Source: Candidatus Omnitrophota bacterium (GTDB lineage: Bacteria > Omnitrophota > Gorgyraeia > Gygaellales > UBA12090). Taken from it: a stretch of DNA of 64,000 nt. The translations under genes and the position numbers were made by a program. Under the pieces are notes generated by a model. That model was not told the origin of the DNA and made no database searches. It saw only the letters and a list, made by a program, of their open reading frames with translations. Location of the stretch: the NCBI GenBank assembly GCA_023247895.1, contig JAHFFP010000001.1:1029-65028 (forward strand). Reading direction: 5' to 3'. Below are positions 13,694 through 43,073 of the stretch, piece after piece (the stretch's first letter is position 1; each line of letters begins with the position of its first letter).

Positions 13694-13747
13694 GGCACTA
13701 TGTATATATACCCCCCCTCTTAGTAAAATAGAAACAACAGCTGTCTC

Positions 13748-15077: not shown

Positions 15078-15464
15078 TTGTTAACTATACAATCCTTCTT
15101 TTTAATTATCCTACGACATTAATAATGCTACGGCTACTTTGTCCGTTCGATTATTCTTCTTAACTTAATTGTTGGCGTCAAAAGATAATCAAAGGGAGAA
15201 ATTGAAAGAAAGATTGTTGAGTCTCTTTTCGAGAACAACTTAAGCGCGAAATGCTCTTGCTGGGAAAGGGGCACAACTCTGGTAGACTAAAAGAGAAGAT
15301 ATCAAAGAGCTACGGTAAGCGTAACGCTTACCGCAAAAAGTATATCACCACTCATATTGTTTGTCAATGAAAAAATACAACATCTGGTATGTTATCTTCC
15401 CTGAACAACAATATATTGTATGACAATGCTGAACGAATAGAAATTTGGCGCCTTAAAACTAGTA

Positions 15465-17822
15465 TTACAAACTGATAACCTTCATAACCTCATCGCCATA
15501 GTGATTAATTACTTTTACGGCGATTTTTCCGGTCCTTGGCTTAGAGAATGGGCGGGAAACAGTGGAATAAAGATCATCCCAGGCGTCCTCTTTGATATCT
15601 GCCTTGAGTGCTTTCTTTAATTTTTCGTAGGGTTTATCTGCTCCGAGGAAATACGCGTGAGTAACAAAGAATGCTTCTCCGTTATAATTCGTATCTATAA
15701 ACCAGGCAGCGATTTCATGTTCTGGATCCCCTGACCCGCTTGAGCGAATTTCGCTCTTAACTGGATCGTATATATCCACACCAACTATTTCAACTATGAT
15801 ACCCTCTTTTGTTTGCTTAACTTTTACGTCCGGCTCTCCAAAAGCAAGGAAAAGATTGCCTGATCCGGTTTTCTTAAGGAGATCACCCATGGAGAGATCA
15901 GGATTAATCTTTACCTTCATTACGCGCAATTTCCCTACTTCAGAAGGCTCGGAGAATGCTGATGCCTCAAAAGAAGTAGCCGCAACCACAAGAAGATCTG
16001 CAAATTTCTTGGCTACTTTAGCTGCATCGTGGATAAAATCATCATCAGCACTACCAAACTCGGGACCAATAGCAACAGCAACTTTCTTTAATCCCTGAGC
16101 TGTCTTATATTCACCCGAAGCTTGAATTTCAGGCCCACCCGGAAGAATATCTAGATTAACAAACTCCACCCGCGCACCTTTTTCACCGGTCTGTACTCCG
16201 GCCTTAAGGAGATTTGCAACCACGGTCTCTACGAAACGCTCAGAAGAAACCATTTCTTGAGCATCAGAAACACGGTGAGGCGAAAGCGACTCTACTGTAA
16301 AAGGTCCAGATACTCGAACAATATTCTTATCCTCTTTCGGTTGATCATATAACATCTCTTGTTCCGGTTCTTCATTATTGGCCAACGACCTAAGAGTAAC
16401 ATGAGGCACAGTATTATATTCAAATCCTATGCTAATATTGAATTTATCTTTAAGCGTATAATAAGGAAACTTCGCCGTCATAAGACGAGTACGAGCTAAC
16501 GCTAACGCAACCCGAGAAGTATCTATAGTAATCCATCTTCTGCCCCATTGCTCTGCAACGCAAGCTGTTGTGCCTGCACCACAAGTTGGATCTAATACTA
16601 AGTCTCCGGGATCTGTAGTCATCAAAATACAGCGTTTTATAACTTCGATTCCAGTTTGAACAACATATTTCTTATTCTGTTCTGATAACTGCGTATTCCA
16701 AATATTATCATACTGAATATATGGAAAATCTTTTACGTATCTCACAAAGCGTAATGTTCCAGAAGCATAAATTCTACCAATCTCTGCAAGTTTTTTTAAG
16801 CTTTCTTCTGAAACCCGCCATCCATTATTTGGATTGTAAATTTTACCTTTATATTTAAAACTATAGATTGCTTGAGGGGCACTTGCCTCAATCTGTTGCG
16901 TTCCTACAATCTCATTTTCATCTACATAGTCTCTTTTTATAAAGAGAGGCCTGAATTTTAGTTCTTTCTCTTCTTTTGCGTACCATAAAATATAATCAAA
17001 AATATTGTTTAGGCGATCGGTTGGCTTTGTCATTGCTGTACGAAAACCAATTTGATTTATAAAATTATCATTCCCGAAAACCTCATCCATAATGTTTCTT
17101 ACTAAATGGACGTTTTCATCATTAATTTGGACAAAACATGAACCACTTTCAGTTAATAGCTCCCGCGCTACTATCAAACGATCTCGCAGATAAGAAAGAT
17201 AAGAATGAATTCCTAGCTCCCAAGTATCGCGATAAGCTTTAATTTGTTCTGGCTGCCGGATAAAATCATCAACCTTATTATCTTTCACATCACGCTTACG
17301 AGTTGATACCTGCCAATTTGAACCAAACTTTATACCGTAAGGTGGGTCAATGTAAATAGTCTGCACTTTACCCCGCATTCCCTCTTTCTCAAGTAGACTA
17401 TTCATTACCAATAAAGAATCACCCAGGACCATGCGATTTTGCCAATTATCCTCATGTTTATAAAACTCAACTGCTTTATCAAATTGCTGCTGCGTTGTTT
17501 CGCCAAAAAGGATTAATTGCATTTCATCTTTAGCTCCCTGTTTAAGCCGAGCAATAATCCCTTCAGGGGCAACCTTTTCTTGAACATAAATTGGAACTGT
17601 AGAAACAGATAATTCTACACCCGCCTCTTTCTTGCCAGCCCAAACTAATTGTGGCTCAAGAGAAGGATCATAATCATACCTTTTCTTTATTGGCTGCTTA
17701 TCGCGGGCAGAAAGTTTTACAGATTCTTCCTGTGTAGGAATACGCTTTCGCTTATCTTTATGCTTATACGAGACTATTGCAGCAGCTTCGGTAGTTCGTG
17801 GTTCTAACCTTTTTCTTCCCAT
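15465..17822 (-). CDS. mod: Type III restriction-modification methyltransferase (Mod), N6-adenine beta-class
   Basis: DPPYGIKFGSNWQ (motif IV) precedes DPTCGAGTTACVA (motif I) = beta-class order; 19-nt overlap with res. Confidence 0.8.
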   Translation of the reverse strand: MGRKRLEPRTTEAAAIVSYKHKDKRKRIPTQEESVKLSARDKQPIKKRYDYDPSLEPQLVWAGKKEAGVELSVSTVPIYVQEKVAPEGIIARLKQGAKDEMQLILFGETTQQQFDKAVEFYKHEDNWQNRMVLGDSLLVMNSLLEKEGMRGKVQTIYIDPPYGIKFGSNWQVSTRKRDVKDNKVDDFIRQPEQIKAYRDTWELGIHSYLSYLRDRLIVARELLTESGSCFVQINDENVHLVRNIMDEVFGNDNFINQIGFRTAMTKPTDRLNNIFDYILWYAKEEKELKFRPLFIKRDYVDENEIVGTQQIEASAPQAIYSFKYKGKIYNPNNGWRVSEESLKKLAEIGRIYASGTLRFVRYVKDFPYIQYDNIWNTQLSEQNKKYVVQTGIEVIKRCILMTTDPGDLVLDPTCGAGTTACVAEQWGRRWITIDTSRVALALARTRLMTAKFPYYTLKDKFNISIGFEYNTVPHVTLRSLANNEEPEQEMLYDQPKEDKNIVRVSGPFTVESLSPHRVSDAQEMVSSERFVETVVANLLKAGVQTGEKGARVEFVNLDILPGGPEIQASGEYKTAQGLKKVAVAIGPEFGSADDDFIHDAAKVAKKFADLLVVAATSFEASAFSEPSEVGKLRVMKVKINPDLSMGDLLKKTGSGNLFLAFGEPDVKVKQTKEGIIVEIVGVDIYDPVKSEIRSSGSGDPEHEIAAWFIDTNYNGEAFFVTHAYFLGADKPYEKLKKALKADIKEDAWDDLYSTVSRPFSKPRTGKIAVKVINHYGDEVMKVISL

Positions 17823-20794
17823 AGATTATTCTCTAATTTATCAAAACCATTTTTTAAACCAGCGCGTATCAAATTTTGTACTTCATGGATATCTTGCACT
17901 TCTAAAATATCCCACTTACCAAATTTCCCAAAATTATTTATCGCAGGAATCCATAATTCACGCGCTGTCTTAACTTTTATTGTTTTCTTGTCATCTTTTT
18001 TTCCTGTAACCTCAATGATTAAATTTAGAATTGATTTATCGGATAACTCAATTTTTGCAATAAAATCCGGGTTGTAATAATGTGCCGCGCCTTGGTGCTC
18101 ATATGGAATGGCAAAACCCAGATTTTGATTTTTGACATAGGATAAAACTTCTGGCATCTGCTCTAATCTTTTCGCAACCCCTTGCTCCCATTCTAGAGTA
18201 TCAGCTACAACGTAATTAACATGGCTCTTGGCTGTACCCTGTACTTCTTTTGTAGTCAAAAAATCCACATATGTAGTAGAACCCAGAGTATCATAAGGAG
18301 CAAGGACCGGAAGAATTCTTTTCTCTTTTTGTTCTGATAGATGCTCAGCTACAATCCCATGCTGAATCTTCGTTAATGCTCCAGAGAAGTATTCACCCAC
18401 AGACAAATAGCCAATTACCATACGATCCTTTAAAACAACATAACTCTTTACATATTCTTCGCAAATTTTCTTAAGCTGCGGGAATAACCAGTATTTTTCC
18501 GTGCCGTCAGCATCCATATAGTAATGTTTGAGTAAGGCCTCGGCAAGTCGTATTATTACTTCGCCATCCCTACGGCTCTTTATCTTTTCAAGCTTTTCTA
18601 CGGTTGTTTCTCCAATAATACCGCCAGACGTAACTTCAGTAGGTTCATTTTCAATTACGGTTTTAGATTCTTCCGTAAACCGAGCCTTCAGCTTTGTCTC
18701 ATCCAGCTCGTATCGATATCCTTCAACGCGCGGAAACGTAATCTCATATTGTTTGCGTTCTTGCAAAGAACAAACACGGTGAATAACTTTTGGCGGCTGT
18801 GGCGGAGTAACTCCTTCAGATTTTAAGAAATTGAACGGCACGCCATACACCTCAGCATATTCTGGCGTCATAAGACCAGTTCCTTTATCGACATCATATT
18901 CAACACGTCTTAAAGCCCTTCCTACTACTTGCTCACACAAAAGCTGAGTAGAAAAAGCTCTAATACCCAAAATATGAGTAACCGTATTTACATCCCAGCC
19001 TTCAGTAAGCATAGAAACAGATACTACGCATTTTATGTTTTCGCCTAGCTTACCCGGCTTTCCAACAGTATTCATTACCTCGCGCAAAAGTTCCTCATCA
19101 CTTGGCTCGGATCTTCCAGGAAAACGGTAACGGTATTCTTTATGGAAATCTTCAATTTCCTTAGTAAAGATTTTCTTAAACTCATCATTTATTTTTTCAC
19201 CACTTTCTAACTGGGCGCTATCAATAAGAAGCGTATTAGGACGATCGATGAACTGCGCGCCGTTTTCGTTTCGGAAATACTCCAAATTACCTTTTTCGAG
19301 TTTAATTCTTCCTGTTGCCGTCTCAATCTCATATCCAGCTATCCAACGATAAACCAATTCAGAAACTGCCGTATTATTACACACGACAATCATAACCGGA
19401 GGCATAACCGAAGGATTAGTCTTCTTCACGTCCGCATAGCGTAGATAATACTGCTCATAGTTGCCGTATAATGACTCTAGCGCCTCCTGTAATTTCGTAG
19501 GCAAAACGAGGGTCGTAAGATAATCTTTACCTCCGGTTTTTAAACCTTTCTTAGGCAAGTTATCGCGGACGTACAGCCATAAATTACGGAATTCTGGTTC
19601 CTCTTCTTGCCTAATGGTGTCCGATTCAATTGGTAAGCGCGGAATCTTCACTACGCCACACTCTAAAGCATCCAATAGTGAAAAATCGTAAACTGTCCAA
19701 GAGAAAAGCGTTCCTTCTTGGTAACCAGAGCCACTTAAGAAATACGGGGTAGCAGAAAGATCGATTATCCCATTAAGAGCAATCTTTTTAGAAAGAGCGG
19801 CTATCCCATTAAGCCAAACCCTCGCTGCTTTATTATTCTCATCTGCTTCTTGCCGTTCGTCTCCTACTAATCTTTCCTCACTTGGTTTCTCTTGATAGCA
19901 ATGATGAGCCTCATCATTGATAACTAGAATTCGCGGCTTCCCAAGCAAACTTTTAAACGCCCTATTTACCATAGTCATCGGAGTCTCTTTTACAGCTTCA
20001 TCTTTAATGATTCCTGCTACTTTCATAACTGACCCAACTTGAAAACGAGGGTTTTGTCGCAACTCTAACTGATGAAAATTTGTTATAATAATTACTGCTT
20101 GCTGAAGAAGCTCAAAATCCTGATATGAGACAATATCTCGCTTCCGATAATAGTTGCTTACGTCGTTTGGCAATAAAACATTAAGCCGATCCCGAATAGT
20201 AATTCCGGGAGTGATAATTGCAAAGGCGTCAGTAAATCGTGTATCTTGCGGATAACGAATCTTATTGAGTGTGTTATAAGCAATAATCATTGCCATAACA
20301 ACAGTTTTGCCTGAACCTGTTGCCATTTTGAAGGCCATACGGTATAACCCAGGATTTGCGTCAGCACTTGATTTCTTAAGTTCATTAATTATCCAACTTT
20401 CGCTAGACTTCTCTGCAGTCTCATTTATAAACATTAATGTTTCTATCGCCTCAATCTGACAAAAGAATAATTTATTTTCTCTAGTTTCATCGCGCCAATA
20501 GGCGAGAAGATCCCGGGAAGTTTTTGTGAGACCATGATAACCGCCATCTCTCCATTCCTTTACCTTAATCCTGATTTTATTTATAAACTCATTCTCTTTT
20601 TGGAGTTCGCTGCCAAAAGCTCCTTCAGCTATATTAAGCTCAAGTTGCTTCTCTTTTGTTTTGGCGCGCGGGATAGGAATGTAGAAACTACTTGGCCGAC
20701 GAAATTCTAAAACCTCATCAGTTATTCCACGCTCATCTGATTTAAAATGGAGGGTAGGTTCAAAATATGGGAAATTTAATATGGGCGATTTCAT
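17804..20794 (-). CDS. res: Type III restriction enzyme Res subunit (SF2 helicase + endonuclease)
   Basis: GSGKT Walker A, LVINDEAHH (DEAH box), helicase C motifs, ~1000 aa. Confidence 0.8.
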   Translation of the reverse strand: MKSPILNFPYFEPTLHFKSDERGITDEVLEFRRPSSFYIPIPRAKTKEKQLELNIAEGAFGSELQKENEFINKIRIKVKEWRDGGYHGLTKTSRDLLAYWRDETRENKLFFCQIEAIETLMFINETAEKSSESWIINELKKSSADANPGLYRMAFKMATGSGKTVVMAMIIAYNTLNKIRYPQDTRFTDAFAIITPGITIRDRLNVLLPNDVSNYYRKRDIVSYQDFELLQQAVIIITNFHQLELRQNPRFQVGSVMKVAGIIKDEAVKETPMTMVNRAFKSLLGKPRILVINDEAHHCYQEKPSEERLVGDERQEADENNKAARVWLNGIAALSKKIALNGIIDLSATPYFLSGSGYQEGTLFSWTVYDFSLLDALECGVVKIPRLPIESDTIRQEEEPEFRNLWLYVRDNLPKKGLKTGGKDYLTTLVLPTKLQEALESLYGNYEQYYLRYADVKKTNPSVMPPVMIVVCNNTAVSELVYRWIAGYEIETATGRIKLEKGNLEYFRNENGAQFIDRPNTLLIDSAQLESGEKINDEFKKIFTKEIEDFHKEYRYRFPGRSEPSDEELLREVMNTVGKPGKLGENIKCVVSVSMLTEGWDVNTVTHILGIRAFSTQLLCEQVVGRALRRVEYDVDKGTGLMTPEYAEVYGVPFNFLKSEGVTPPQPPKVIHRVCSLQERKQYEITFPRVEGYRYELDETKLKARFTEESKTVIENEPTEVTSGGIIGETTVEKLEKIKSRRDGEVIIRLAEALLKHYYMDADGTEKYWLFPQLKKICEEYVKSYVVLKDRMVIGYLSVGEYFSGALTKIQHGIVAEHLSEQKEKRILPVLAPYDTLGSTTYVDFLTTKEVQGTAKSHVNYVVADTLEWEQGVAKRLEQMPEVLSYVKNQNLGFAIPYEHQGAAHYYNPDFIAKIELSDKSILNLIIEVTGKKDDKKTIKVKTARELWIPAINNFGKFGKWDILEVQDIHEVQNLIRAGLKNGFDKLENNLWEEKG

Positions 20795-20797
20795 TAC

Positions 20798-21001
20798 TTA
20801 CTCTTCTAAAAAATAAGCCGCTTCTTTCTTAAGGGCTTTTGCAATCTTAACCAACGTTTCAATTGATGGCATTGAAAGACCAGTTTCGTAACGCGAAATA
20901 CTTTTCTGCTTCGCACTTATTTTTTTTGCAAGCTCAGTTTGATTCAAATCTAATTCAATACGGGCAATTTTTATCTTCTTCCCTAATTTTTTAGCGTCCA
21001 T
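20798..21001 (-). CDS. XRE-family HTH protein, probable R-M controller (C) protein
   Basis: LNQTELAKKISAKQKSISRYETG HTH; 67 aa; immediately upstream of res-mod. Confidence 0.65.
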   Translation of the reverse strand: MDAKKLGKKIKIARIELDLNQTELAKKISAKQKSISRYETGLSMPSIETLVKIAKALKKEAAYFLEE

Positions 21002-21020
21002 TCCATCTCCAAAATAATAC

Positions 21021-21050
21021 TTGACAATTATACCTTTTAAGGTATAATTT
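21021..21050 (+). promoter_or_regulatory. Consensus sigma-70 promoter (TTGACA-16 nt-TATAAT) overlapping palindrome aattatacctttt|aaggtataatt; candidate C-box operator / divergent promoter region
   Basis: Exact -35/-10 hexamers at 21021-21026 and 21043-21048; 11-bp perfect inverted repeat. Confidence 0.5.
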
Positions 21051-21318
21051 AGTCATTAAGGGAATATTTACATTCTAGACTTATTAAGGCTAATATATAC
21101 CTATCCGGTAATAAACGCAAGTAATTTATGGGTAACTCGAGTTTGATAGAGGGTAAGGTTCGGGGACAGTCCTCTGCGGGGACAGTCCTTTCGGTAACTT
21201 CGAGGGCAGACCCTTCCGTCCAGCATCTATTAGACGTAATCTCTTCTATTATAGCCGAAGAATACATTATGATAGCTAAACAAAACCCTAAAACATTTCA
21301 AAATGATGGAGGCACAAA

Positions 21319-23307
21319 ATGAAAGCAGCAATATACGCAAGATATTCTTCTGAAAATCAAAGCGAAAAGAGTATTGACGACCAGATAAGAGTATGCAAAA
21401 ACTACTGCAAAGAGCATGAAATTCTTATAAATGAGGAACACATTTATGTTGATGAAGCCCTATCCGGCTCCCTACTTAACCGCCCCGGATTACAAGCCTT
21501 GGATAAAGCCGCAGAAAACAAGGAATTTGAGGCTGTGGTTGTTGATGACCTCTCCCGCCTTTCAAGAAGTAACCACCAGATGCTGACACTGGTGCTTAAA
21601 TTCAATTATTATCAAGTTAAGATTATCTCGGTTGCAGATGGAATCTGCACTGACGATGAAAATTCGAAGTTAGGGATTCAAATGCGCGGCTTAATAAATG
21701 AGCTATACCTGGATGATTTGAGAAAAAAGACCCTGCGTGGGCTTGAGGGGCAAAAACTCCGCGGCTTTAGCGCCGGCGAAAAAGTCTATGGCTACTATAC
21801 CAAGCCCGTAGGCGAATTAAAACTTAATCGTAAAGGACAAGCCAAATACGAAGGTATGGTCCATAAAATAAACCCTGATGAGGCTGAAATCGTAAAAAGG
21901 ATATTCAAGGAATTCGCAGACGGTAAAAGCATCCAGAAAATAATGATTGGGCTTAACGAAGAAAAGGTTCCGACAAAAAGAAAACTTAACGGCGGATGGA
22001 ATACCTCAACCATATCCAGGATTTTAAAGAACCAGAAATATATCGGAATATGGAACTGGAGAAAAACAAAGGTTGTCAGGGACCCGATGACCGGGAAAAA
22101 GAAGAAATTTGCCCGTCCTGAAAAAGATATGATTCCTATTCAGCGAGAGGATCTGGTCATTATCGATAAAGAACTCTGGGAAAAAGTGCAAAAAAGACGG
22201 CAGGAAATAGAAGGAACATGGCCGGTAAGCAAGAAAAAACAGGCCTTCTACCAGCAAAAAAGCTATGTGCATACCAGCCCAAACCACTTATTTTCCGGCC
22301 TAATGAAGTGTAATTCCTGCGGCGGAGCAATCGTCCTCATTAGCGGCAAGGGCGGCGGTTATTACGGATGCTACAATACAAAAAGAAAAACCTGTAGTAA
22401 CCCTCTTACTATTCCCCGGAAAAGGATAGAAGAAATAATTATCAAGGAGTTACAAAATACAATACTAACCGCAGAGAATATCGAATATGTCTATAAGAAC
22501 GTGGAGAAACTTGCCGTGCAAGGTCTAAATGAAATACCCGAACTGGTTACGAAAAAGAAGGCGCAATATGAAAAAATACAGCAAGAGATACAAAATTACC
22601 TTAATTTTATCAGGATGGGTAATCTTTCCAAGGCAGTGGCTGATGCTTTAACAGAAGCAGAAAAGAAAAATGATGGGCTAAAGCAGGAAATCGGGTCTTT
22701 GGAGTTTCAGAAAGAGAATAATTTCAAAGCACCGCCAAAAGAATGGATAAATCACAGGCTGGAAAACTTAAAGGACACCCTGAATAAAAACACTATCTCT
22801 TCTTCCTTAGCGCTTAAAGAACTATTGGGAGCAATAACGCTTGAGCCGGTTTTAACCAAAGACGCTGATTTTTACCAGCTTTTTGCGGAAAACGAGAAGA
22901 ATTTCAAGCCCTATTACGTTGCCCATACAAAAATTCAAACCCTTGCGCTCTTAGATGAAGAGCACAAAGGTTCGAATTGGTGTCACTGGCGGAGAGTGGA
23001 GGATTTGAACCTCCGGTCGCCTTACGGCGACAACGGTTTTCGAGACCGCCGCATTCAACCGCTCTGCCAACTCTCCGAATTATATTTTCTTTCCTATAAT
23101 CAAAGCTGTATCAAATTCCGTATCTTTTCTTTTAATTTCGGACAACCCTGCATCCTTCATCCACGAACGCACTTGGGATTCGGTATAGGTATCGCCCTCT
23201 TCTGTGGCGACGAGCATATTCAAAGAAAAAAGGGCGCCAAAGGAGGGGCTCGTCCTATCTTCATCCATAATAAAATCCTGCACTACCACCTGCCCTCCGG
23301 GATTTAG
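21319..23307 (+). CDS. large serine recombinase (integrase). ORF has no stop until 23307 and reads through tRNA-Ser and into the convergent methyltransferase gene. The functional C-terminus is probably near 22980.
   Basis: MKAAIYARYSSENQS...SIDDQ (resolvase catalytic Ser domain), recombinase domain, CNSCGG...C zinc ribbon, coiled-coil. Confidence 0.75.
   Translation: MKAAIYARYSSENQSEKSIDDQIRVCKNYCKEHEILINEEHIYVDEALSGSLLNRPGLQALDKAAENKEFEAVVVDDLSRLSRSNHQMLTLVLKFNYYQVKIISVADGICTDDENSKLGIQMRGLINELYLDDLRKKTLRGLEGQKLRGFSAGEKVYGYYTKPVGELKLNRKGQAKYEGMVHKINPDEAEIVKRIFKEFADGKSIQKIMIGLNEEKVPTKRKLNGGWNTSTISRILKNQKYIGIWNWRKTKVVRDPMTGKKKKFARPEKDMIPIQREDLVIIDKELWEKVQKRRQEIEGTWPVSKKKQAFYQQKSYVHTSPNHLFSGLMKCNSCGGAIVLISGKGGGYYGCYNTKRKTCSNPLTIPRKRIEEIIIKELQNTILTAENIEYVYKNVEKLAVQGLNEIPELVTKKKAQYEKIQQEIQNYLNFIRMGNLSKAVADALTEAEKKNDGLKQEIGSLEFQKENNFKAPPKEWINHRLENLKDTLNKNTISSSLALKELLGAITLEPVLTKDADFYQLFAENEKNFKPYYVAHTKIQTLALLDEEHKGSNWCHWRRVEDLNLRSPYGDNGFRDRRIQPLCQLSELYFLSYNQSCIKFRIFSFNFGQPCILHPRTHLGFGIGIALFCGDEHIQRKKGAKGGARPIFIHNKILHYHLPSGI
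22987..23076 (-). tRNA. tRNA-Ser (anticodon CGA), CCA encoded
   Basis: GGAGAGT acceptor, long variable arm, GGTTCAAATCC T-loop, anticodon loop CT-CGA-AA. Confidence 0.8.
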
Positions 23308-26994: not shown

Positions 26995-27189
26995 CTACCT
27001 CTGAGGGAGCAGGCGATTCTTCAAAAAAGCAAAACCAGAGCCAGATTTTAAATATCTTTCAAAACTTACAGCTTGAGTTTTGTCCTTAAATACTGTATAT
27101 GTTTCTAAATTCCACGGTGCATAATTTTTGCTATATCTGGTTTCGTTATGATTATGCTCTTTAATCCTATTTTCTAAATTTTCTGTCAA
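26995..27189 (-). CDS. GIY-YIG nuclease-family small protein, N-terminally degraded or non-ATG start
   Basis: ...RLTENLENRIKEHN...YSKNYAPWNLETYTVFKDKTQAVSFERYLKSGSGFAFLKNRL matches the short GIY-YIG family. The frame stays open upstream (EYCLHF...ISGAIIYRL) to a stop, with no ATG. Confidence 0.45.
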   Translation of the reverse strand: MTENLENRIKEHNHNETRYSKNYAPWNLETYTVFKDKTQAVSFERYLKSGSGFAFLKNRLLPQR

Positions 27190-27383
27190 ACGATATATAA
27201 TCGCTCCGGATATTTCTAACTCTTTAAAATGTAAACAGTATTCATGCTATTCTGCTACGCCCTTTAGAATATTTAAAATCATGGTAGGGCTTCGCAGCAA
27301 TTCTTTTTCGCCATACTCAAAAAAAACTTGTTGCTTTGAAGCCCTACCAGCTATTACATATTGAAGGGCGAAAAAAGAACGGC

Positions 27384-27723
27384 GTTCTTGCGACGAAGTC
27401 AGAAGTTTTTACCGCTAAATTCCTTTGCTAAATTTTTAATCTGCACCGCCCTGTCGGGCTCCCACATCTCCCGCGCCCCATTCGCCCCGTTTAGGAGCGG
27501 GGCTCATTCGGCGCCAGCCTGGGCCGGCTGGCTTCTTGCTCATGCAATGCGGGTTCAGCTTTGCTTGTGTTTTGTAGCCGGGTGCGGGCGGCTGCAAAAC
27601 ACAGCGTCCTCACTCCAAGAATTTATTACAGGTAAAACGATTTTTTTAATAAGAGTTCGTCCGCTCTCCCGCCCCAACATCTTCGCCATTATAAAGAACA
27701 AAAATTTTGATGTCAGAATATTA
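27384..27723 (+). repeat. GC-rich, hairpin-dense 340-nt element, copy A (inverted copy at 29419-29758, ~99% identical)
   Basis: Direct comparison. Internal stems include gccccg...cggggc, gccagcc...ggctggc and tgttttgtagccg...cggctgcaaaaca. GC content is far above the flanks. Confidence 0.8.
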
Positions 27724-27734
27724 AAAAATGAGCT

Positions 27735-29111
27735 TTATCCAATTAAATTAGTACTTTTGTTATGGTCGCTCTCATTGACTAAAATTTTCTTTTCGGCTAA
27801 TGGTCCAACGAGTAGAGATAAAACTCGTCCATAGCTTTCACAATCCACTATTGTTACAGCGATCCCTTCGCTTTCCAGTTTCGTCTTTATTACTAATACT
27901 TCTTTAAGATCAGAATGGCGAAATACTTCTTTTAAATTTCCCTGATTTTTAAAAGAATAATAAATCCCTAAAATTATACCAATAAATGAGACTAATTCAT
28001 AACCCGTAAATGGAATATGAACATGAAGTAATCTGTGAAGAAAAACGGGTAAAAAAGCAACGCCACATAAAAAAATACTCCAAATAAATATGATTTTTGT
28101 CACTATATTATCTAAATATTCTATAGCAGATTTTTCCGTATCTCTCCCCGGTATAGATAATCCAAAATGCTTTAATTTAGGTACTAATTCTACGGGGTTA
28201 AATACCACTGCCGTACAGAAATAAGCAAAGAAAATAATTGATACTACCCACACGAGATATGAACCCCACGTCCCCGGCGTTAAAATATTACCTATAATAC
28301 CGGATGCTGAATTGACATGCTTACCAGAAAATACCATTACAGTAGCCGGAAATAATAATATACTGCTGGTAAAGTAAATTGGAAGTATCCCTCCAAGGTT
28401 AAAAGGTATCGTCATCGAAAGATCTTTAGAATTCTTTCCAGGAATACTTACTGATATTGTTTTATATTTTCTTAACATAAAAATAATTAGTCCAACAAAT
28501 GAAATAAATAACAATAACCCTAAGCTTGCTTTTAATAGACTTGAATTAAGGACCTCTTTTACCATCTGAGGTATAAGATGCCTAAACTTCATTAGTAGCC
28601 CCGAAATAATAAATAATGATATTCCGTTTCCAATTCCATATTTATTGATTTGATTCGCCATCCAAATAATAACCAAAACTCCGCCAGTAATAGACAAAAT
28701 GGATAACATTCGAAAAATGATACCAGGGTTACTAACTAGATAAATTCCATGAACCTTCCCAAAACTTTCCATCCATAGAGACAGAAAAAAAGCTTGAATT
28801 AGGCTAAGAAGAATGACTCCTACATATATAAATTGATTAATTTTTCTAATTCCTAGGGCACCATTTTTATATCTATTTCTCAAGGGGGGTACCACAGCTA
28901 TTAATAACATGAATATAATATGAGTGGATAGATAAGGCATAATATCTAAAGAAAAAATGGATATACGCCGCATAATTAACTCTAAGTAACCCATATTAGG
29001 AATGTTAGTAAGAGATTTTAAAGCAGCGTAACTCACTCCGGACACAGGAATAAATCTTCCAGCCCAGTAGAGCAGTAAAAACAATAATGTTATGCAAATG
29101 CGTTTGTACAT
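27735..29111 (-). CDS. SecY-family translocon protein paralog with ~60-aa C-terminal cytoplasmic extension
   Basis: AGRFIPVSGV, LDIMPYLSTHIIFMLL, YGIGNGISLFIISG, GGILPIYFTSSILLFPATVM and FCTAVVFNPVELVPKLKHFGLSIPG align with canonical SecY signatures. Confidence 0.75.
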   Translation of the reverse strand: MYKRICITLLFLLLYWAGRFIPVSGVSYAALKSLTNIPNMGYLELIMRRISIFSLDIMPYLSTHIIFMLLIAVVPPLRNRYKNGALGIRKINQFIYVGVILLSLIQAFFLSLWMESFGKVHGIYLVSNPGIIFRMLSILSITGGVLVIIWMANQINKYGIGNGISLFIISGLLMKFRHLIPQMVKEVLNSSLLKASLGLLLFISFVGLIIFMLRKYKTISVSIPGKNSKDLSMTIPFNLGGILPIYFTSSILLFPATVMVFSGKHVNSASGIIGNILTPGTWGSYLVWVVSIIFFAYFCTAVVFNPVELVPKLKHFGLSIPGRDTEKSAIEYLDNIVTKIIFIWSIFLCGVAFLPVFLHRLLHVHIPFTGYELVSFIGIILGIYYSFKNQGNLKEVFRHSDLKEVLVIKTKLESEGIAVTIVDCESYGRVLSLLVGPLAEKKILVNESDHNKSTNLIG

Positions 29112-29136
29112 TGCCCCCTCCTATAAATAGTGCTTC

Positions 29137-29334
29137 CTATTTTCTTCCTACCAGCTCATCTATCGAAACCCCAAAAACATCCGCTAATCTTGAAAGGGTC
29201 TCAAATGTTGGATTTTTTGCTTTTCCTACTTCTATTTTAGAAATTGTGTTATATGAAATATCGGTCAGTCGGGCAAGTTTTTCTTGAGATAATTTCTTTT
29301 GTTGTCTTAGCTTTTTCAGATTTTTACCTAACAT
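29137..29334 (-). CDS. XRE-family HTH transcriptional regulator
   Basis: LSQEKLARLTDISYNTISKIEVG. Confidence 0.7.
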   Translation of the reverse strand: MLGKNLKKLRQQKKLSQEKLARLTDISYNTISKIEVGKAKNPTFETLSRLADVFGVSIDELVGRK

Positions 29335-29418
29335 TTTGGGCTTGACTCAAAGTCAATTACATATTATAATACTCGTATTATAAAGTATACTTTATTTTTT
29401 CTATTATACCACTAAAAC

Positions 29419-29758
29419 TAATATTCTGACATCAAAATTTTTGTTCTTTATAATGGCGAAGATGTTGGGGCGGGAGAGCGGACGAACTCTTATTAAAAAA
29501 ATCGTTTTACCTGTAATAAATTCTTGGAGTGAGGACGCTGTGTTTTGCAGCCGCCCGCACCCGGCTACAAAACACAAGCAAAGCTGAACCCGCATTGCAT
29601 GAGCAAGAAGCCAGCCGGCCCAGGCTGGCGCCGAATGAGCCCCGCTCCTAAACGGGGCGAATGGGGCGCGGGAGATGTGGGAGCCCGACAGGGCGGTGCA
29701 GATTAAAAATTTAGCAAAGGAATTTGGCGGTAAAAACTTCTGACTTCGTCGCAAGAAC
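29419..29758 (-). repeat. GC-rich 340-nt element, copy B (inverted orientation)
   Basis: Reverse complement matches 27384-27723. Confidence 0.8.
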
Positions 29759-29760
29759 AC

Positions 29761-29814
29761 CGCCAGTCAAGACGACCCTGCGATTGGGCGATGTAATCGT
29801 AGGGTCGTCTTGAC
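29761..29814 (-). terminator. perfect 20-bp stem hairpin immediately 3' of tRNA-Ser(TGA)
   Basis: cgccagtcaagacgaccct...agggtcgtcttgactggcg. Confidence 0.5.
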
Positions 29815-29904
29815 TGGCGGAGAGGGTGAGATTTGAACTCACGGTGGAGTTGCCCCCACAACAGTTTTCAAGACTGCCGCTTTCAACCACTCAGCCACCT
29901 CTCC
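29815..29904 (-). tRNA. tRNA-Ser (anticodon TGA), CCA encoded
   Basis: GGAGAGG acceptor, long variable arm, GGTTCAAATCTCACC T-arm, anticodon loop CT-TGA-AA. Confidence 0.8.
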
Positions 29905-31903: not shown

Positions 31904-33358
31904 CTATCCTTTTACTACACCCACCGGTCTCATCCGGCAAACCCTCTTGGAGATTCCGGCGTTATGCACCACATCCACCACATCGTTCACATCTTTATAG
32001 GCAAGCGGAGCCTCTTCCACGATTGTGCTACGGCTTGAGGCCATCACGTATATCCCTTGTGCCTCAAGATCCTTGACTAACTTGTGGGCGTCAAAAGCCT
32101 TGGTTGCCGCGGTGCGGGATTTTACCCGCCCTGCGCCATGGCAAGTGGAGTAAAATGTTTCAGCTGCTTTCTCGGTTCCCACCAGTAAATAGGAATTCCT
32201 CCCCATATCTCCCGGGATAATTACAGGTTGCCCTGTTTCCTGGTATTCCTGCGGTAATTCCGGATGCCCCGGAGGGAATGCCCGCGTTGCCCCTTTACGG
32301 TGCACGCAAAGTGTTTTTTCCTTGCCGTCAATCACATGCTTCTCAAGCTTGGCAATGTTATGGGCAACGTCATAAATCAAATCCATACCTATGTTCTGCC
32401 AGGACTTATTCAAAGTGCGCTCAAAGGCCTTACGCGCCAGATGCATCAAACACTGCCTATTATTCCAGGCATAATTTGCCGCCGAGCGCATTGCTGAAAG
32501 GTATTGTGTAGCCTCAAGAGAATCTATCGGAGCGCAGGCAAGCTGCCTATCGGGAACATTAATCCCTTATTTTTGCATTGCCCTCATCATAACTTTAAGG
32601 TAATCATCGCATACCTGATAACCAAAGCCGCGGGAGCCGGAATGAATCATCACGGTTATCAAGCCTTCACTTAAACCAAATACGTCTGCGATATCACTGT
32701 CATAAATCCTGTCAATAACCTGAATTTCCAGAAAATGGTTGCCGCTTCCCAGAGTGCCTGATTGCGCCTTGCCTCTCTCATACGCCCTCTCTGACACCGC
32801 CGAGGGGTCAGCTCCGGGAATTGCCCCGCGCTCTTCAGTTACCTCCAAGTCCTCTGCCACCCCATAACCTTGCGCAACCGCCCACTGAGACCCCTTAACC
32901 ATTATCTGCTGTTCTTCCTTTTCACTTACCTTAATCTCGCCTTTTGAGCCTACGCCTGAAGGCACCAGATGAAACAGGCTTAAGGTTAATTCCCTGATTC
33001 TATTCTTTACTTCTTCATATTCAAGATTTGTTTTAACAAGCCTCACTCCGCAGTTGATATCAAACCCAACTCCCCCGGGAGAAACTACGCCGCCTTTTTG
33101 CGGGTCAGTTGCCGCAACCCCGCCTATGGGGAAACCATATCCCCAGTGTATATCCGGCATAGCAAGCGACGCGCCTACAATTCCCGGTAAAAACGCTACA
33201 TTTGCCACTTGCTCTAGCGCCTTATCTTGACGGATATCTTTAAGGAGTTTTTCATCCGCATAGACTATACCGTCGACACGCATCCCTGGAATAGCCTCTT
33301 TGGGAATCTTCCAACGATAGTTATCTATCTTTTTTAAGCTTTCGTAGGTATCCTGCAT
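31904..33358 (-). pseudogene. rtcB: RNA-splicing ligase RtcB interrupted by in-frame TAA (32567-32569) at a position occupied by Tyr in homologs
   Basis: HSGSRGFGYQV and HGAGR motifs. The two ORFs (263 aa + 195 aa) are in the same frame, 75 nt apart. Readthrough translation ...MQK*GINVPDRQLACAP matches RtcB. Confidence 0.75.
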
Positions 33359-38447: not shown

Positions 38448-39251
38448 TTACGAAGATACCGCGAGTATCGCAATATCCTTTTTCTCTGCTAAGCGTAATG
38501 CCTCGTGCTGATCAAAAAATAAGGTTTTGCCTGCCTCTATCGCCAGACAGCTTCCCTGAGACAGGTTTTTTATTGTCCCTAAGCCTACCACAGGCACATC
38601 AAAACGCATATCCTGCGAAGGTTTACTCGTTTTTACCAAAACAATCGACGAACGCGTAAGGCTCACCGCGCGCCTTATGGCGTTATCGGTGCCTTCTATT
38701 GACTCAACCGCCAAAATCACGCCATTCTTGACGCATACGCTTTGGCCGATATCCATAATCCCTAAATGCTTAGCGATTTTAAAACCAAATCTCACGTCCT
38801 TATACTCCTGTTCGCTTGGAGACCTTGGTGTCAAAACTGCCTCTTGAGGCATATAGCCTGATAAGAATAGCGTTGAATCAAGCAACTCTAAATGTGCTTT
38901 TTGCAATCGAGCGACAAATGCCCGAAATACCGTATCGGCCCTGCGGTCTTCTATTTTACCAAAAAAAGCCTCTACATCAGGCGAAGCCATAATCTTTGGG
39001 TTAAAAAGGAACTGCGGATTAATTTGCCCCGCCATAGCTACTTTAGAAATGTCTTCCTTCTTAAAAATATCGATAATGCGGTTAAACTCCTTCGCTTCTA
39101 TCCAATGAAGTATAGCAACGTATTTCTTAAGGACTGGCCTTGTATTTTTCTTGACGCCAACAGCAGTGACATGGTAGCCTGCGTTCTTTGCGTGTTGGGC
39201 AAAAAATAGGGGAAAATTACCTCTGCCTGCAATAAGGCCAATTCTTTCCAT
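38448..39251 (-). CDS. lpxI: UDP-2,3-diacylglucosamine diphosphatase LpxI (DUF1009)
   Basis: MERIGLIAGRGNFP start and overall LpxI pattern; position in lpx cluster. Confidence 0.7.
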   Translation of the reverse strand: MERIGLIAGRGNFPLFFAQHAKNAGYHVTAVGVKKNTRPVLKKYVAILHWIEAKEFNRIIDIFKKEDISKVAMAGQINPQFLFNPKIMASPDVEAFFGKIEDRRADTVFRAFVARLQKAHLELLDSTLFLSGYMPQEAVLTPRSPSEQEYKDVRFGFKIAKHLGIMDIGQSVCVKNGVILAVESIEGTDNAIRRAVSLTRSSIVLVKTSKPSQDMRFDVPVVGLGTIKNLSQGSCLAIEAGKTLFFDQHEALRLAEKKDIAILAVSS

Positions 39252-39288
39252 AGTGTGTAGAGAGAGTCAAAACCACCGCGCAAGCCTT

Positions 39289-40083
39289 TTAGGCAGGGGT
39301 TTCTTGCGTGCTTACTGCCCGGGCTATACCGCGCGATGAAGACTTTAGAAAATCTATTAAATAGTTGACTTCATGGCTCTTATTGATACAGCTTTGCAGC
39401 TTCTCAATGGCGTGAGTTTTGCTTAAACCGGTAAAGAAGAGATATTTAAATGCGGACTTCAAATCAGAGATAACGTTTGAAGGAACCTGCGCCCTGCGCA
39501 AACCAACCAGGTTAAGGCCGTACACCCTTGCGGGATGGCCGTCACAGGTAGAAAAAGGGGGAATATCCTGAACCACCTTGGAACAACCTCCGATAATAGA
39601 AAATTTTCCCACTCGGGTAAACTGATGTATAGCCACCAGCCCGCCAATAACTGTTTTATCTTCTATAGTAACATGCCCGGCTAAGGTTGCGCAGTTAGCC
39701 AGGACACAATTATCGCCGACTATGCAATCATGGGCAATATGCGAATACGCCATAATAAGGTTATTATTACCTACCGTGGTGACGCCTTTCTCAACGGTTC
39801 CAAGGTTTATAGTAGTATACTCTCTGATAATGTTATTCTCGCCAATGACAACTTGGGTATCTTCGCCTTTATATTTTAAGTCCTGCGGCGGGCTTCCTAT
39901 CACCACGCCGCTATAAATCTGACAACCAGCGCCAATAGTGGTATCGCCGTCAATTACGCAGGAAGTGGCTATCTTTACCTTGGGGCCTATCTTTACCTTT
40001 GAGCCTATAACCGAATACGGGCCGACTTCTACATCAGCCGCTATTTGAGCATATTCTGAGACTACCGCCGTTTTATGTATCAT
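39289..40083 (-). CDS. lpxA: acyl-ACP:UDP-GlcNAc O-acyltransferase
   Basis: Left-handed beta-helix hexapeptide repeats, MIHKTAVV start, conserved C-terminal helical domain. Confidence 0.85.
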   Translation of the reverse strand: MIHKTAVVSEYAQIAADVEVGPYSVIGSKVKIGPKVKIATSCVIDGDTTIGAGCQIYSGVVIGSPPQDLKYKGEDTQVVIGENNIIREYTTINLGTVEKGVTTVGNNNLIMAYSHIAHDCIVGDNCVLANCATLAGHVTIEDKTVIGGLVAIHQFTRVGKFSIIGGCSKVVQDIPPFSTCDGHPARVYGLNLVGLRRAQVPSNVISDLKSAFKYLFFTGLSKTHAIEKLQSCINKSHEVNYLIDFLKSSSRGIARAVSTQETPA

Positions 40084-40114
40084 AGAAATTATGCTTTTGT
40101 GTGTCTCTCTATTT

Positions 40115-41434
40115 TCAACCTTCAACCAACGCAAACATCAATTCACCTTCCGTTGCCACCCTTCCATCCACGTATGCCTTGGCAAACACCTGTCCGGTTT
40201 TTGTCTTAATTTTACCCACGATAACCTCAATCATAAGCTGATCGCCCGGCAAAACCGGTTTTCTGAATTTTACCCCATTAGCCGCCATAAAAAAGGCAAG
40301 CTTGCCCCTATTTTCTTCCGAAGAAAGCATCATTACCCCACCCACCTGAGCCATAGCCTCGATAATCAATACTCCCGGCATAACCGGTTTACCGGGGAAA
40401 TGCCCGACGAAGAAATGCTCATTGATAGTCACATTTTTTATCCCCACTGCCTTTTTGCCTTTCTCCAAGGAAACAATCTTATCCACCAAAAGGAAAGGAT
40501 AGCGATGAGGTAAAATTTTCATAATGGCCGCAGCATCTAGTTCTTCGCCATTCTTGGGGATATTGCCAAAGGCGATACTTCCTGATTCATATTTTATCTT
40601 TTGCTGATATATCTTTTGCAATAATTTCAGATTCAAAGAGTGGCCACTTCTGATAGCTATTATTTTTCCCTTTATCTGCGCGCCTAACACATAGAGGTCA
40701 CCCATTAAATCCAAGATTTTATGCCGGACAAACTCATCTTGAAAGCGCAAAGTATTCTTAATGACTTCTTTTTCCCCCACCACAAGAGTATTCTGATAGT
40801 TGGCGCCTTTTCCCAGGCCAATGCCTTGCAGGCTTTCGGCTTCTTCCTGTAAACAAAAGGTTCTTGATGAAGCAAGCTCTTGCTCAAAACTCTCAGGAGT
40901 AACCACCAATTCCAGATACTGGGCCTTTAATAAGAGATGGTCATACTGCAATGTGTAGCGGATACTGTAGTCATTCGCGGGTAACGCCACAATCATTGCT
41001 TGGCCTTCTTCAACCCACAAAGGCTCTTTTATAGAAAAATATTTTCTTGAAGTTTCTTGTTCAACGATACCCGCTTCCTTGAGCAAGCTTAAAAACTCAA
41101 TTCCTGAGCCGTCAAGCCCGGGGATTTCGTTATTATCGACTTCTATCAAGAGATTGTCCAATTGCAAACCGGATAATACCGCCATAAGATGCTCAACTGT
41201 TTGCACTTCGGCATTTCCTATCCCTAACGAGGTACGGCGCTGAGTCTTACACGATTCTAAGACAGATACGCTCTCCGCCTTTATTGCCGGCTTGTCCTTT
41301 ATATCTACGCGAACAAAATGTATTCCGGAATTAACCGGCGCCGGCTTAAAAGTAAGATTCACCTTGTTGCCAGTATGCAGCCCTATGCCGGAAATCCTTG
41401 CTTGATTTTTAATCGTTCTTTGTAAAAGCTCCAT
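40115..41434 (-). CDS. lpxC-fabZ: bifunctional UDP-3-O-acyl-GlcNAc deacetylase / 3-hydroxyacyl-ACP dehydratase (LpxC-FabZ fusion)
   Basis: N-terminal GIGLHTGNKVNLTFKPAP (LpxC); C-terminal HFFVGHFPGKPVMPGVLIIEAMAQ (FabZ hot-dog). Confidence 0.85.
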   Translation of the reverse strand: MELLQRTIKNQARISGIGLHTGNKVNLTFKPAPVNSGIHFVRVDIKDKPAIKAESVSVLESCKTQRRTSLGIGNAEVQTVEHLMAVLSGLQLDNLLIEVDNNEIPGLDGSGIEFLSLLKEAGIVEQETSRKYFSIKEPLWVEEGQAMIVALPANDYSIRYTLQYDHLLLKAQYLELVVTPESFEQELASSRTFCLQEEAESLQGIGLGKGANYQNTLVVGEKEVIKNTLRFQDEFVRHKILDLMGDLYVLGAQIKGKIIAIRSGHSLNLKLLQKIYQQKIKYESGSIAFGNIPKNGEELDAAAIMKILPHRYPFLLVDKIVSLEKGKKAVGIKNVTINEHFFVGHFPGKPVMPGVLIIEAMAQVGGVMMLSSEENRGKLAFFMAANGVKFRKPVLPGDQLMIEVIVGKIKTKTGQVFAKAYVDGRVATEGELMFALVEG

Positions 41435-41436
41435 GA

Positions 41437-42474
41437 TTATTTCTTACTCACCCTTTCTTCTAATTCCTGAAGGCGCTTCTTCAAATCTATAATCTCTTGA
41501 AATAATTCAGGCAATTTCTGGGTGTAGGCATTTATCTTTTTGGCTTCGCTATGCGGCCGCGCCGGATACCCCGACACAATGGCATTAGCGGCCACCGATT
41601 TGGTAACCCCTGCCTGTGCTGCGATTATCGCGCCGTCGCCGACTTCTATGTGGCCGACTAAACCCGACTGGCCGGCGAGCGTTACATTTTTTCCGATAAT
41701 CGTGCTTCCGGAAATACCTGTTTGCGCTACGATAATCGAATTTTCGCCAATTACCACATTGTGGGCAATCTGCACAAGATTGTCAATCTTGGTTCCCTTG
41801 CCTATGACTGTCTTGTCAAAACGCGCGCGGTCGATAGCCACATTAGCCCCGATTTCTACATCATCTTGTATCTCCACACTCCCAATCTGGGGAATCTTTT
41901 CATGAATGCCTTTTATATTGATAAATCCAAAACCATCCGAACCGATAACCGTCCCGCTATGAATAATAACTCTATTGCCTATATTCGTCTTTTCCCGTAT
42001 GGAAACATTTGGATATATCAGGCAGTTATTTCCTATACGGCTCTGGTGGCCGATGAAACACCCGGGATATATAATAGTCTTATCGCCAATAACTACATCA
42101 TCGTCTATTACTACATAGGCGCCTAAGGCAACATCTTGGCTTAAAACAACATTCTTTCCGATTATCGCGCTAGGATGTATACCTTGCGGATGGCGTACAG
42201 AAGAAGGCAGCGCATACGAAATTACTCTCGTAAATGCCAAAGAGGGGTTCTCAATGCGGATTATTGGCTTAGGAGTAGACTGAACTTCCCTGGAAGTAAT
42301 AATCGCTGAGGCGTGCGTTTCGCCTATAAGATTGGTATAACGCGAATTAGCAAGAAAGGTGATATCGCCTTCTTTTGCCTCCTTGATACCGCAGACGCCG
42401 GTAATAACGATGCTCGGGTCCCCTATCAACTCACCGCCGATAACTCGGGCTATTTCACCTAAGGTGCTCTTCAT
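41437..42474 (-). CDS. lpxD: UDP-3-O-acylglucosamine N-acyltransferase
   Basis: Hexapeptide repeats, N-terminal LpxD domain, C-terminal coiled-coil. Confidence 0.85.
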   Translation of the reverse strand: MKSTLGEIARVIGGELIGDPSIVITGVCGIKEAKEGDITFLANSRYTNLIGETHASAIITSREVQSTPKPIIRIENPSLAFTRVISYALPSSVRHPQGIHPSAIIGKNVVLSQDVALGAYVVIDDDVVIGDKTIIYPGCFIGHQSRIGNNCLIYPNVSIREKTNIGNRVIIHSGTVIGSDGFGFINIKGIHEKIPQIGSVEIQDDVEIGANVAIDRARFDKTVIGKGTKIDNLVQIAHNVVIGENSIIVAQTGISGSTIIGKNVTLAGQSGLVGHIEVGDGAIIAAQAGVTKSVAANAIVSGYPARPHSEAKKINAYTQKLPELFQEIIDLKKRLQELEERVSKK

Positions 42475-42503
42475 TATGCCGCTATCTTTCTGATTATCTC
42501 TAA

Positions 42504-43028: not shown

Positions 43029-43073
43029 TTCTCCTCCTCAATGTGCACTTGTGCCCGCCTTATCTCTACAATC

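Follow-up and report, generated by a model that had tools for sequence, protein, structure and literature searches.

A two-gene cassette, lying between inverted copies of one structured element next to tRNA-Ser(TGA), was analysed in a stretch of 64,000 nucleotides (the 64-kb window) from Candidatus Omnitrophota bacterium; all coordinates below are positions within this window and not contig numbers. The genes encode an XRE-type regulator and a divergent SecY protein ending in a DUF2007-like domain (SecY-DUF2007). The conserved structured element was named E; it has a core of about 340 nt, to which a leader and a tail are added, and measures about 400-450 nt in total. The locus is probably a miniature member of a set of Omnitrophota-specific, tRNA-adjacent variable gene units built on E. 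The backbone of such units runs from E to an XRE repressor gene and further to the cargo, and is optionally closed by an inverted identical copy of the element, E'. The arrangement E-XRE-SecY-E' recurs, its arms evolve together, its composition is foreign to the surroundings and its channel gene is under purifying selection. Judging by sequence comparisons, SecY-DUF2007 is almost certainly an accessory, mobile paralog of SecY. The locus includes the following features:

27380..27723, + strand: left arm, inverted copy of element E (repeat search, blastn against 22 genomes, nhmmer E-value 1.5e-56, alignment A2)
27735..29111, - strand: SecY-DUF2007 gene, 458 aa, SecY-fold channel with 10 transmembrane (TM) helices (Pfam, TIGRFAM, fold, dN/dS, GC content)
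27753..27932, - strand: codons of the C-terminal small alpha/beta domain, residues 394-453, DUF2007-like
29137..29334, - strand: XRE/Cro-C1-type helix-turn-helix regulator, 65 aa (HTH_3, PF01381, 69.7 bits versus a threshold of 23)
29335..29432, - strand: putative control region of the operon (consensus scan, repeat search)
29419..29762, - strand: right arm, element E (repeat search, nhmmer, alignment A2, context of other loci)
29760..29820, - strand: 26-bp hairpin with one mismatch, arms 29760-29785 and 29795-29820
29815..29904, - strand: tRNA-Ser(TGA), chromosomal anchor of the unit

The cassette and its divergent SecY

The arms of the inverted repeat (27380-27723 and 29419-29762, 344 nt each) are 99% complementary, with two mismatches at arm positions 4 and 37 and 1695 nt between them, and constitute the sole inverted repeat of at least 30 nt in the window. 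The GC content is 58-60% in the arm cores, approximately 27-40% in the cassette (about 32% overall) and approximately 42-49% in the flanks (about 44%). A preliminary description of this DNA had reported near-identical, inverted, GC-rich and hairpin-dense flanks, one of which adjoins tRNA-Ser(TGA), and this was confirmed; the arms are no private feature of the cassette and turned out to be degenerate copies of the family-wide element E. The sense of E in the left arm is that of the + strand, directed into the cassette, and the core is represented there only by positions 2-237 of about 340 (27444-27676), being internally deleted. The core in the right arm (29698-29466) shares its sense with tRNA-Ser and the XRE gene, and the placement of this arm upstream of XRE is the placement of E in other genomes. 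Only the SecY-like and XRE genes lie between the arms, both on the - strand, with XRE as the first gene of the two-gene operon and a gap of 25 nt between them.

It had been conceded at the outset that the inverted repeat could be an assembly artefact, such as a chimeric or palindromic misjoin, and in a metagenome-assembled genome (MAG) built from short reads it is indeed impossible to phase how a segment flanked by 344-bp repeats is oriented. However, the outer flanks are distinct and the two mismatches are arm-specific. A separate Logan assembly of run SRR14366766 contains a 1755-bp unitig, corresponding to 1695 nt plus twice 30 nt, which ends exactly 30 nt into each arm and breaks exactly at both inner boundaries. 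The cassette from another run, SRR22388351 (L124), is 92.7% identical at the nucleotide level and has the same inverted 30-nt termini, and the same architecture was found in other runs or lineages, namely L124, L006, L126 and L033. The explanation by an artefact is therefore effectively refuted.

The E-XRE-SecY-E' unit is present in at least four diverged lineages and at least five samples. The inverted termini of L124 are identical to each other and differ from the window at the same two sites in both arms, which indicates concerted evolution of the arms. L006, with 85% nucleotide identity, comprises E, XRE, SecY-DUF2007 and an inverted inner terminus. Contigs of the P0006 lineage, originating from several samples, carry a full-length E, XRE, SecY-DUF2007 and an inverted full-length E'; their SecY is 64%, XRE 93% and E 85% identical to those of the window. 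More distant members (P0007, P0009, P0010 and P0014) have no E and are located in unrelated neighbourhoods, which are often tRNA-adjacent or rich in nucleases and methylases. A 62%-identical SecY-DUF2007 in L004 (the same in L005) has upstream, at 9634-9990, tRNA-Lys(CTT), a second, partial copy of the 3' half of this tRNA (~9870-9913) and what is left of an XRE C-terminus (9958-9987); by its sequence, this region looks like an old integration scar.

The protein matches Pfam SecY (PF00344) with 171.9 bits, compared with a gathering score of 32.2, over profile positions 1-305 of 306, and possesses the 10-TM SecY/Sec61 fold. The earlier assignment to a genuine and divergent SecY fold was correct: the score with the housekeeping equivalog TIGR00967 is 170.5 bits, below the cut-off of 253.6, and the next-best matches after its own family are canonical SecYs, with an identity of 31-37%. 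The comparison with Gram-positive SecY2 pointed to the wrong family, as the accessory SecY2 models TIGR02920 and NF009082 gave 65.5 and 68.5 bits versus cut-offs of 249.6 and 353. No SecA2, Asp or glycosyltransferase genes were found beside SecY-DUF2007 in the window, L002-L011 and L125-L128, which represent seven different contexts. The gene had also been described as lying outside a ribosomal spc operon, and its neighbours in the window are XRE, E and tRNA-Ser. None of the contexts examined places SecY-DUF2007 in an spc operon; in other genomes, these contexts are unrelated to one another and are often tRNA-adjacent.

The extra C-terminal domain noticed previously was located at residues 394-453. 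The match to DUF2007 (PF09413) is 24.5 bits, just below the cut-off of 25.7, and the sequence of the domain has no significant match in the PDB. The DUF2007-like domain stands in place of the basic C-terminal tail of canonical SecY. The SecY-DUF2007 family consists of 13 clusters in 5.8 billion proteins, with 33-84% identity to the window protein; its members are approximately 437-472 aa long and most of them are recorded with the DUF2007 tail. The literature search found no paper combining SecY and DUF2007. A metagenome scan for further family members was dominated by canonical SecYs; one of its loci, L072, is an ordinary spc operon with the order S8-L6-L18-S5-L15-SecY-Map. A phage origin was also considered and rejected: the phage database yielded only host-like canonical secY, IMG/VR contained no protein relative, and the single DNA pattern match in IMG/VR was a chance match in a high-GC phage.

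The consensus sequences of the family and of canonical SecY were compared loop by loop (alignment A3). The plug segment SIFSLDIMPY, the motif GIGNGISL and the TM7 motif PIYFTSSILLFPAT are kept. The N-terminal segment is short and no longer has FSGGAL, C4 has been shortened by 7 aa and has no basic motif YAKR..GR..YGG, and in C5 the motif GIRPG is replaced by x-DTE, the Arg position being occupied by R, I, K, A or V in different family members. The C4 and C5 loops and the C-terminal tail of canonical SecY form the docking surface for the ribosome and SecA. Since the docking motifs have been lost, SecY-DUF2007 is probably not a general co-translational or SecA-driven translocon.

The gene has a dN/dS of 0.17-0.24, indicative of purifying selection, and its tail is constrained too. 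Its GC content is 32.5% (26% at third codon positions) versus 43.8% in the flanks, about 11 points lower; in lower-GC relatives, the GC content of the gene is near that of the flanks. It might be supposed that SecY-DUF2007 is the sole housekeeping SecY, which has moved out of the spc operon and evolves fast, while the repeats are incidental. The full-length SecY domain, the plug, pore and gate motifs, the purifying selection and the lack of a second secY within the window agree with such a view. Nevertheless, a sole housekeeping role is very unlikely because of the low TIGR00967 score, the low GC content, the rare and patchy family of only 13 clusters, the movement of the gene together with E-XRE-E' into differing contexts and the loss of the docking motifs. 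Besides, the syntenic relative L019 has no secY at the corresponding locus, and according to a preprint, canonical SecYEG is encoded in complete Omnitrophota genomes together with giant SecA-domain proteins. The evidence for paralog status is strong but indirect.

The other gene of the cassette encodes the protein's own XRE regulator, as had been proposed, and this 65-aa protein matches the HTH_VI, capH and Control_protein (restriction-modification controller) models of PADLOC. In other genomes, XRE is E's conserved partner. The region upstream of the gene contains an extended -10 promoter-like site, ATGTCA-18-TATAAT with TG (29432-29403), although overall counts of the consensus scan are not above those of shuffles, and an imperfect palindrome (29349-29372 and 29375-29398), which is a candidate XRE operator. 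The sequence TGGTATAAT in this region is kept in L006 and L124. Outward promoters at the inner ends of the arms (CTGACA-17-TATAAT, 11 of 12 consensus positions) were considered as well and discarded; they are not conserved in other genomes, and total promoter counts equal those of shuffles.

Element E and the units built on it

Two short motifs common to the window and to the 85%-identical L006 were searched for in 185,579 GTDB species-representative genomes. The scan yielded 31 loci, of which 22 are homologous to arm positions ~56-300 with 68-84% identity. Nearly all true homologs of E belong to Candidatus Omnitrophota MAGs, with three copies in a single genome; the carriers are estimated to be a small minority of Omnitrophota. 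The search with Rfam covariance models recommended earlier gave no family: among 4227 models, there was no match at the gathering threshold in the window or in 20 homologous loci, and at E<=10 only chance-level matches appeared, including those for a full-length copy of E. Identification of the arms as tmRNA, RNase P, signal recognition particle (SRP), 6S, HEARO, GOLLD or ROOL RNA was dismissed for lack of an Rfam match, and ARAGORN found no tmRNA. The idea of an SRP RNA, which came from the dnaX-recR synteny in four loci, was abandoned, as neither the helix-8 motif nor an Rfam match was found. Protein-coding arms were rejected too, because the mirrored open reading frames (ORFs) of 118 and 157 aa are of low complexity and the indels are not multiples of three.

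RNAalifold revealed compensatory changes in 30 of the 41 pairs of E. A model comprising 82 pairs in 14 helices has 87.8% of cells paired versus 74.5% in column shuffles, none of which (0 of 500) reached the observed value; controls with slid partners gave 35-46%. Both sides are altered in 46 pairs of the model, including those of a long-range helix. When the covarying helices are read in the sense of tRNA-Ser and XRE, G-U combinations number 31 and A-C combinations 15. It is most likely that E acts as a folded single strand, with a modest preference for an RNA read in the tRNA/XRE sense.

The terminal hairpin of E (alignment A2 columns 568-600; L022 ~2372-2404, L036 and L034) has covarying stems, AT-rich or GC-rich, and an 8-9-nt loop GGTGCGGGC. 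In five genomes (L020, L022, L027, L033 and L042) the loop is the exact reverse complement. Another helix of E ends in a closely similar G-rich loop, GGGTG(C/G)GGG. AT-rich palindromes of the GCAAAATTTTGC type are present within and after the terminal hairpin. The arms in the window have lost the 3' third of E, that is, one strand of the long-range helix and two hairpins, and have kept the tail. Both window copies carry an identical internal deletion, and the E of L006 is deleted differently.

In at least nine loci, E is followed by an XRE gene with the same orientation, whose product is 40-67% identical to the XRE of the window. The cargo beyond it includes HsdM/HsdS, a type III methylase, N6 methylases, a DUF4011/AAA_11 helicase-like protein, a radical SAM protein, a DUF4062/HATPase_c_4 protein and a Hypoth_Ymh protein, and is mostly of the restriction-modification or defence type. 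L019 shares with the window the synteny of SerRS, a membrane protein and tRNA-Ser, with SerRS 76% identical, and carries there a recombinase, E, XRE and other cargo. L033 has a second, inverted E, and its arms, 100% identical over the 162 nt available, surround 5001 nt with XRE and restriction-modification cargo; judged by its sequence, L033 is the window's design with other cargo.

A large serine recombinase gene with Resolvase, Recombinase and Zn_ribbon_recom domains adjoins E upstream, on the opposite strand, in five genomes. Each of these recombinases (~490 aa) is encoded between inverted repeats of 91-137 bp, which are 99-100% identical and lie about 1.42-1.45 kb apart. At its outer end, the left repeat overlaps the CCA end of the tRNA, and the other repeat ends with TGGCGG just before E. 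The bracketed loci are:

L019, 1813-3446
L033, 800-2422
L023, 4672-6361
L031, 15-1641
L034, 5608-7296

The tRNA upstream of E is Ser-TGA in the window, Ser-GCT in L042, and Ser or His in others. The hairpin of the window extends from the encoded CCGCCA end of the tRNA to the TGGCGG abutting the right arm, where E starts. It was first taken for a perfect 20-bp hairpin; in fact it has 26 bp with one mismatch and includes the encoded CCA end of the tRNA. The same arrangement, with no recombinase gene, follows tRNA-Ser(GCT) in L042, and in L019, L033 and L023 the recombinase gene fills this position. No duplicated 3' fragment of tRNA-Ser was found at the window locus. As regards an insertion sequence or a composite transposon, inverted repeats are present, and neither a transposase between the arms nor a target-site duplication was detected.

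The inverted pairs of E can also be understood purely at the DNA level, as long terminal inverted repeats or recombination sites that are moved by the neighbouring large serine recombinases, possibly contain XRE operators and have no RNA function. This reading seems possible and rather doubtful. It would account for identical inverted pairs around cargo, for the repetition of E within genomes and the breaking of contigs at E, for the adjacent recombinase genes with perfect inverted repeats of their own, for the terminal loop occurring in both orientations, for the AT-rich palindromes in and after the terminal hairpin, and for the internally deleted window copies being held identical. However, sites for proteins on double-stranded DNA would not select compensatory changes at 46 pairs including a long-range helix, nor the excess of G-U over A-C, and no target-site duplication accompanies the repeats. 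Serine recombinases are not known to require sites of ~450 bp, which also counts against this reading.

Another explanation, which appears quite improbable, considers E to be a chromosomal non-coding RNA gene used by islands as an integration target, like tRNA and tmRNA genes, with the extra copies as by-products. L041 has a full E and two partial 3'-half copies on one strand, L016 has an extra 5' fragment of E, variable cargo begins right after E, and in L026, L027 and L018 the element stands beside the housekeeping genes dnaX-recR, all of which fits this explanation. Yet E was found by the invariant-motif scan in only about 22 of the species-representative genomes, so it is not a universal RNA gene, and its position varies among three tRNA-Ser isoacceptors, tRNA-His and dnaX. 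Moreover, integration yields direct repeats, whereas the repeats in the window, L033 and L126 are inverted, and E, XRE and cargo travel together.

Some further observations were made near copies of E. The copies of the L041 tandem array, on one contig of genome JBAZLB01, are situated at 449-627, 5096-5425 and 6184-6327, each with a KilA-N/ORF6N-like gene, and more E is present at the ends of two other contigs (L035 and L038). Rfam families detected in the vicinity of E include a group I intron in L035 (555-751, ~300 nt from E), a group II intron in L025 (553-1167), a c-di-GMP-I riboswitch in L015 (833-917) and an nhaA-I motif in L012 (616-668).

A possible role of the cassette

The preferred reading, a tRNA-adjacent variable unit built on E, suggests the following course of events. 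The unit would have been acquired horizontally, and recombination between the arms would keep them identical and could flip the cassette. The 26-bp hairpin may be a vacant or collapsed site, which in related genomes carries the large serine recombinase. The XRE protein would repress its own operon from the promoter and palindrome just inside the right arm, and the channel would be kept at a low level. SecY-DUF2007 itself may represent a SecY-derived accessory channel that retains the plug, pore and lateral-gate helices; the basic C4 loop, the C5 Arg motif and the tail appear to have been lost, and a small cytosolic alpha/beta domain to have replaced the tail.

As to the role of the channel, a repressor-controlled membrane module of the conflict type, acting as a gated pore or blocking secretion by competition for SecE/SecG, is a tentative first choice. 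A dedicated export route for special substrates is also possible, and other roles make up the remainder. The conflict role was placed slightly above export because restriction and defence-type cargo fills the same slot elsewhere; in favour of export are the channel core, which is intact, and the giant proteins that this phylum secretes. A more far-reaching combination was regarded as unlikely. According to it, E would be a new class of ~450-nt structured elements that end mobile, invertible Omnitrophota cassettes serviced by bracketed large serine recombinases at tRNA ends, and SecY-DUF2007 would be a translocon-derived conflict module, a dominant-negative or ligand-gated SecY arresting secretion or opening the membrane once XRE is lost.

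A number of observations weigh against these interpretations. SecY-DUF2007 matches no defence model of PADLOC, the conflict role is drawn from the association with neighbouring genes only, and a working translocon would explain equally well or better why the channel core is conserved throughout. No housekeeping secY was seen for this genome within the 64-kb window. The functional strand of E is only weakly indicated; the candidate pseudoknot between UCCCAC and the loop of helix 9, compatible with the XRE-sense strand, is non-significant (56 of 500 shuffles reach the observed value), and the reverse-complement terminal loop would fit recognition at the DNA level better than an RNA loop. As the window copies are without about a third of E, the element may be inert DNA here. 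The cassette has no recombinase of its own, and no target-site duplication was detected where the arms end on the outside; the nearest recombinase, 6.4 kb away at 21319-23307, is a large serine recombinase of an unrelated subfamily. All five recombinase loci have one orientation relative to E, which argues against free flipping of the recombinase unit. The repeats had initially been suggested to drive inversion or mobility. The mobility is supported by the same E-XRE-SecY-E' unit across lineages and contexts, and inversion of the cassette between the arms may be possible; an exact look-up of the XRE protein for contigs in the other orientation returned the same unitig only. The same outer flank of at least 249 nt, including a DDE transposase fragment and a terminator hairpin, was found on the XRE side in L125 (1-560) and on the SecY side in L127 (1970-2218). 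The finding is ambiguous: the arms may be longer, the cassette may occur in both orientations, or the contigs may contain a misjoin.

Most known cases of a second SecY channel come from plastids or belong to the export of glycoproteins in Gram-positive bacteria. The present locus is a SecY copy with a rebuilt cytosolic face, a fused domain and its own repressor on a mobile bracketed cassette of a diderm candidate phylum. If it provides an alternative export route, it bears on the export of unusual (giant) proteins by Omnitrophota; should it be a conflict module, the universal translocon scaffold would here have its first use of the defence or toxin type. The succession of a tRNA end, a recombinase within perfect inverted repeats, E, XRE, variable cargo and E' is a testable recurrent architecture, which could explain the shuffling of restriction and defence genes in Omnitrophota.

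Surroundings in the window and comparison with known systems

The degraded GIY-YIG gene reported on the other side of the cassette was confirmed as a fragment outside the left arm. No GIY-YIG homolog was found beside E at other loci, and it is uncertain whether the fragment is part of the island. The description of the organism as a diderm is supported by the genes of BamA, OmpH, LpxD, LpxC-FabZ, LpxA and LpxI at 38448-45683. A second island is situated on the other tRNA-Ser of the window, at 10366-23307; the two tRNA-Ser genes are adjacent in L019 and 6.7 kb apart in the window. The features concerned are:

26995..27189, - strand: GIY-YIG nuclease gene fragment, 64 aa, profile positions 20-71 of 78
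21319-23307, + strand: large serine recombinase ORF with Resolvase, Recombinase and Zn_ribbon_recom domains, running antisense into tRNA-Ser(CGA) (22987-23076)
17804-20794: ResIII, type III restriction-modification
15465-17822: N6_N4_Mtase, type III restriction-modification
13748-14716: reverse transcriptase
10366-11814: AlbA_2/HATPase_c_4 protein

RtcB at 31904-33358 consists of two ORFs of 263 and 195 aa with approximately 75 nt between them, and in L004/L005 it is a single 991-aa ORF with an intein; a frameshift, a stop codon that is recoded or an intein site that has decayed may account for the split in the window. Direct repeats were also noted. A 53-nt repeat (4601-4653 and 52508-52560, 79% identity, core AATCTCGATTTTCGATTCTCT) lies just 3' of tRNA-Ser(GGA) and tRNA-Gln(TTG), a 138-nt repeat occurs three times (1-138, 1430-1567 and 2862-2999) with a spacing of about 1.43 kb, and a 300-nt pair (7539-7838 and 9810-10109) has 80% identity.

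Accessory SecY paralogs, XRE-controlled cargo, tRNA-linked islands and repeat-bracketed segments are known kinds of systems. A SecY-DUF2007 fusion carried by a mobile cassette of a diderm, the element E and a recombinase within perfect inverted repeats at tRNA ends appear to be undescribed. Like the housekeeping SecY (TIGR00967/PF00344), SecY-DUF2007 has the plug SIFSLDIMPY, GIGNGISL and the TM7 motif; unlike it, SecY-DUF2007 scores below the equivalog cut-off, is encoded outside the spc operon on a repeat-bracketed cassette with XRE, has an altered N-terminus, C4 and C5, and has the tail exchanged for the DUF2007-like domain. It resembles SecY2 of the Gram-positive accessory Sec system in being a second divergent SecY outside the ribosomal protein operon, and differs from it in scores far under the model cut-offs, in the absence of SecA2, Asp and glycosyltransferase neighbours, in the diderm host and in the C-terminal fusion.

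Known flipping systems include invertible segments of the Hin/Gin type and the flip-flop of plastid genomes by large inverted repeats. As in these, a gene segment lies between identical inverted repeats whose arms evolve in concert, and, as with hin, the serine recombinase gene of the relatives is inside a repeat-bracketed segment of its own. However, the arms here are 344-450 bp long compared with approximately 26 bp in Hin/Gin systems, and the recombinases are large (~490 aa, Recombinase plus Zn-ribbon), with none in the cassette. Tycheposons and pipolins are tRNA-linked integrative islands with defence cargo and serine or tyrosine integrases. The units described here share with such islands the location at tRNA 3' ends, the backbone of recombinase and regulator, the variable cargo and decayed copies without a recombinase, but their edges are a large covarying inverted element instead of short direct att repeats.

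GOLLD, ROOL and HEARO/omega RNA are large structured RNAs linked with mobile elements. E is similar to them in its size of several hundred nucleotides, its GC-richness on an AT-rich background, its many covarying helices, and its occurrence in mobile DNA and near tRNAs; in contrast to them, it matches none of the 4227 Rfam models, has no IscB, TnpB or phage context and occurs in inverted pairs. Finally, the 65-aa XRE protein is comparable to C proteins of restriction-modification systems and to CapH regulators, as it matches Control_protein, capH and HTH_VI and its gene precedes the presumed target cargo, whereas the cargo here is a membrane channel and the XRE operator is putative.

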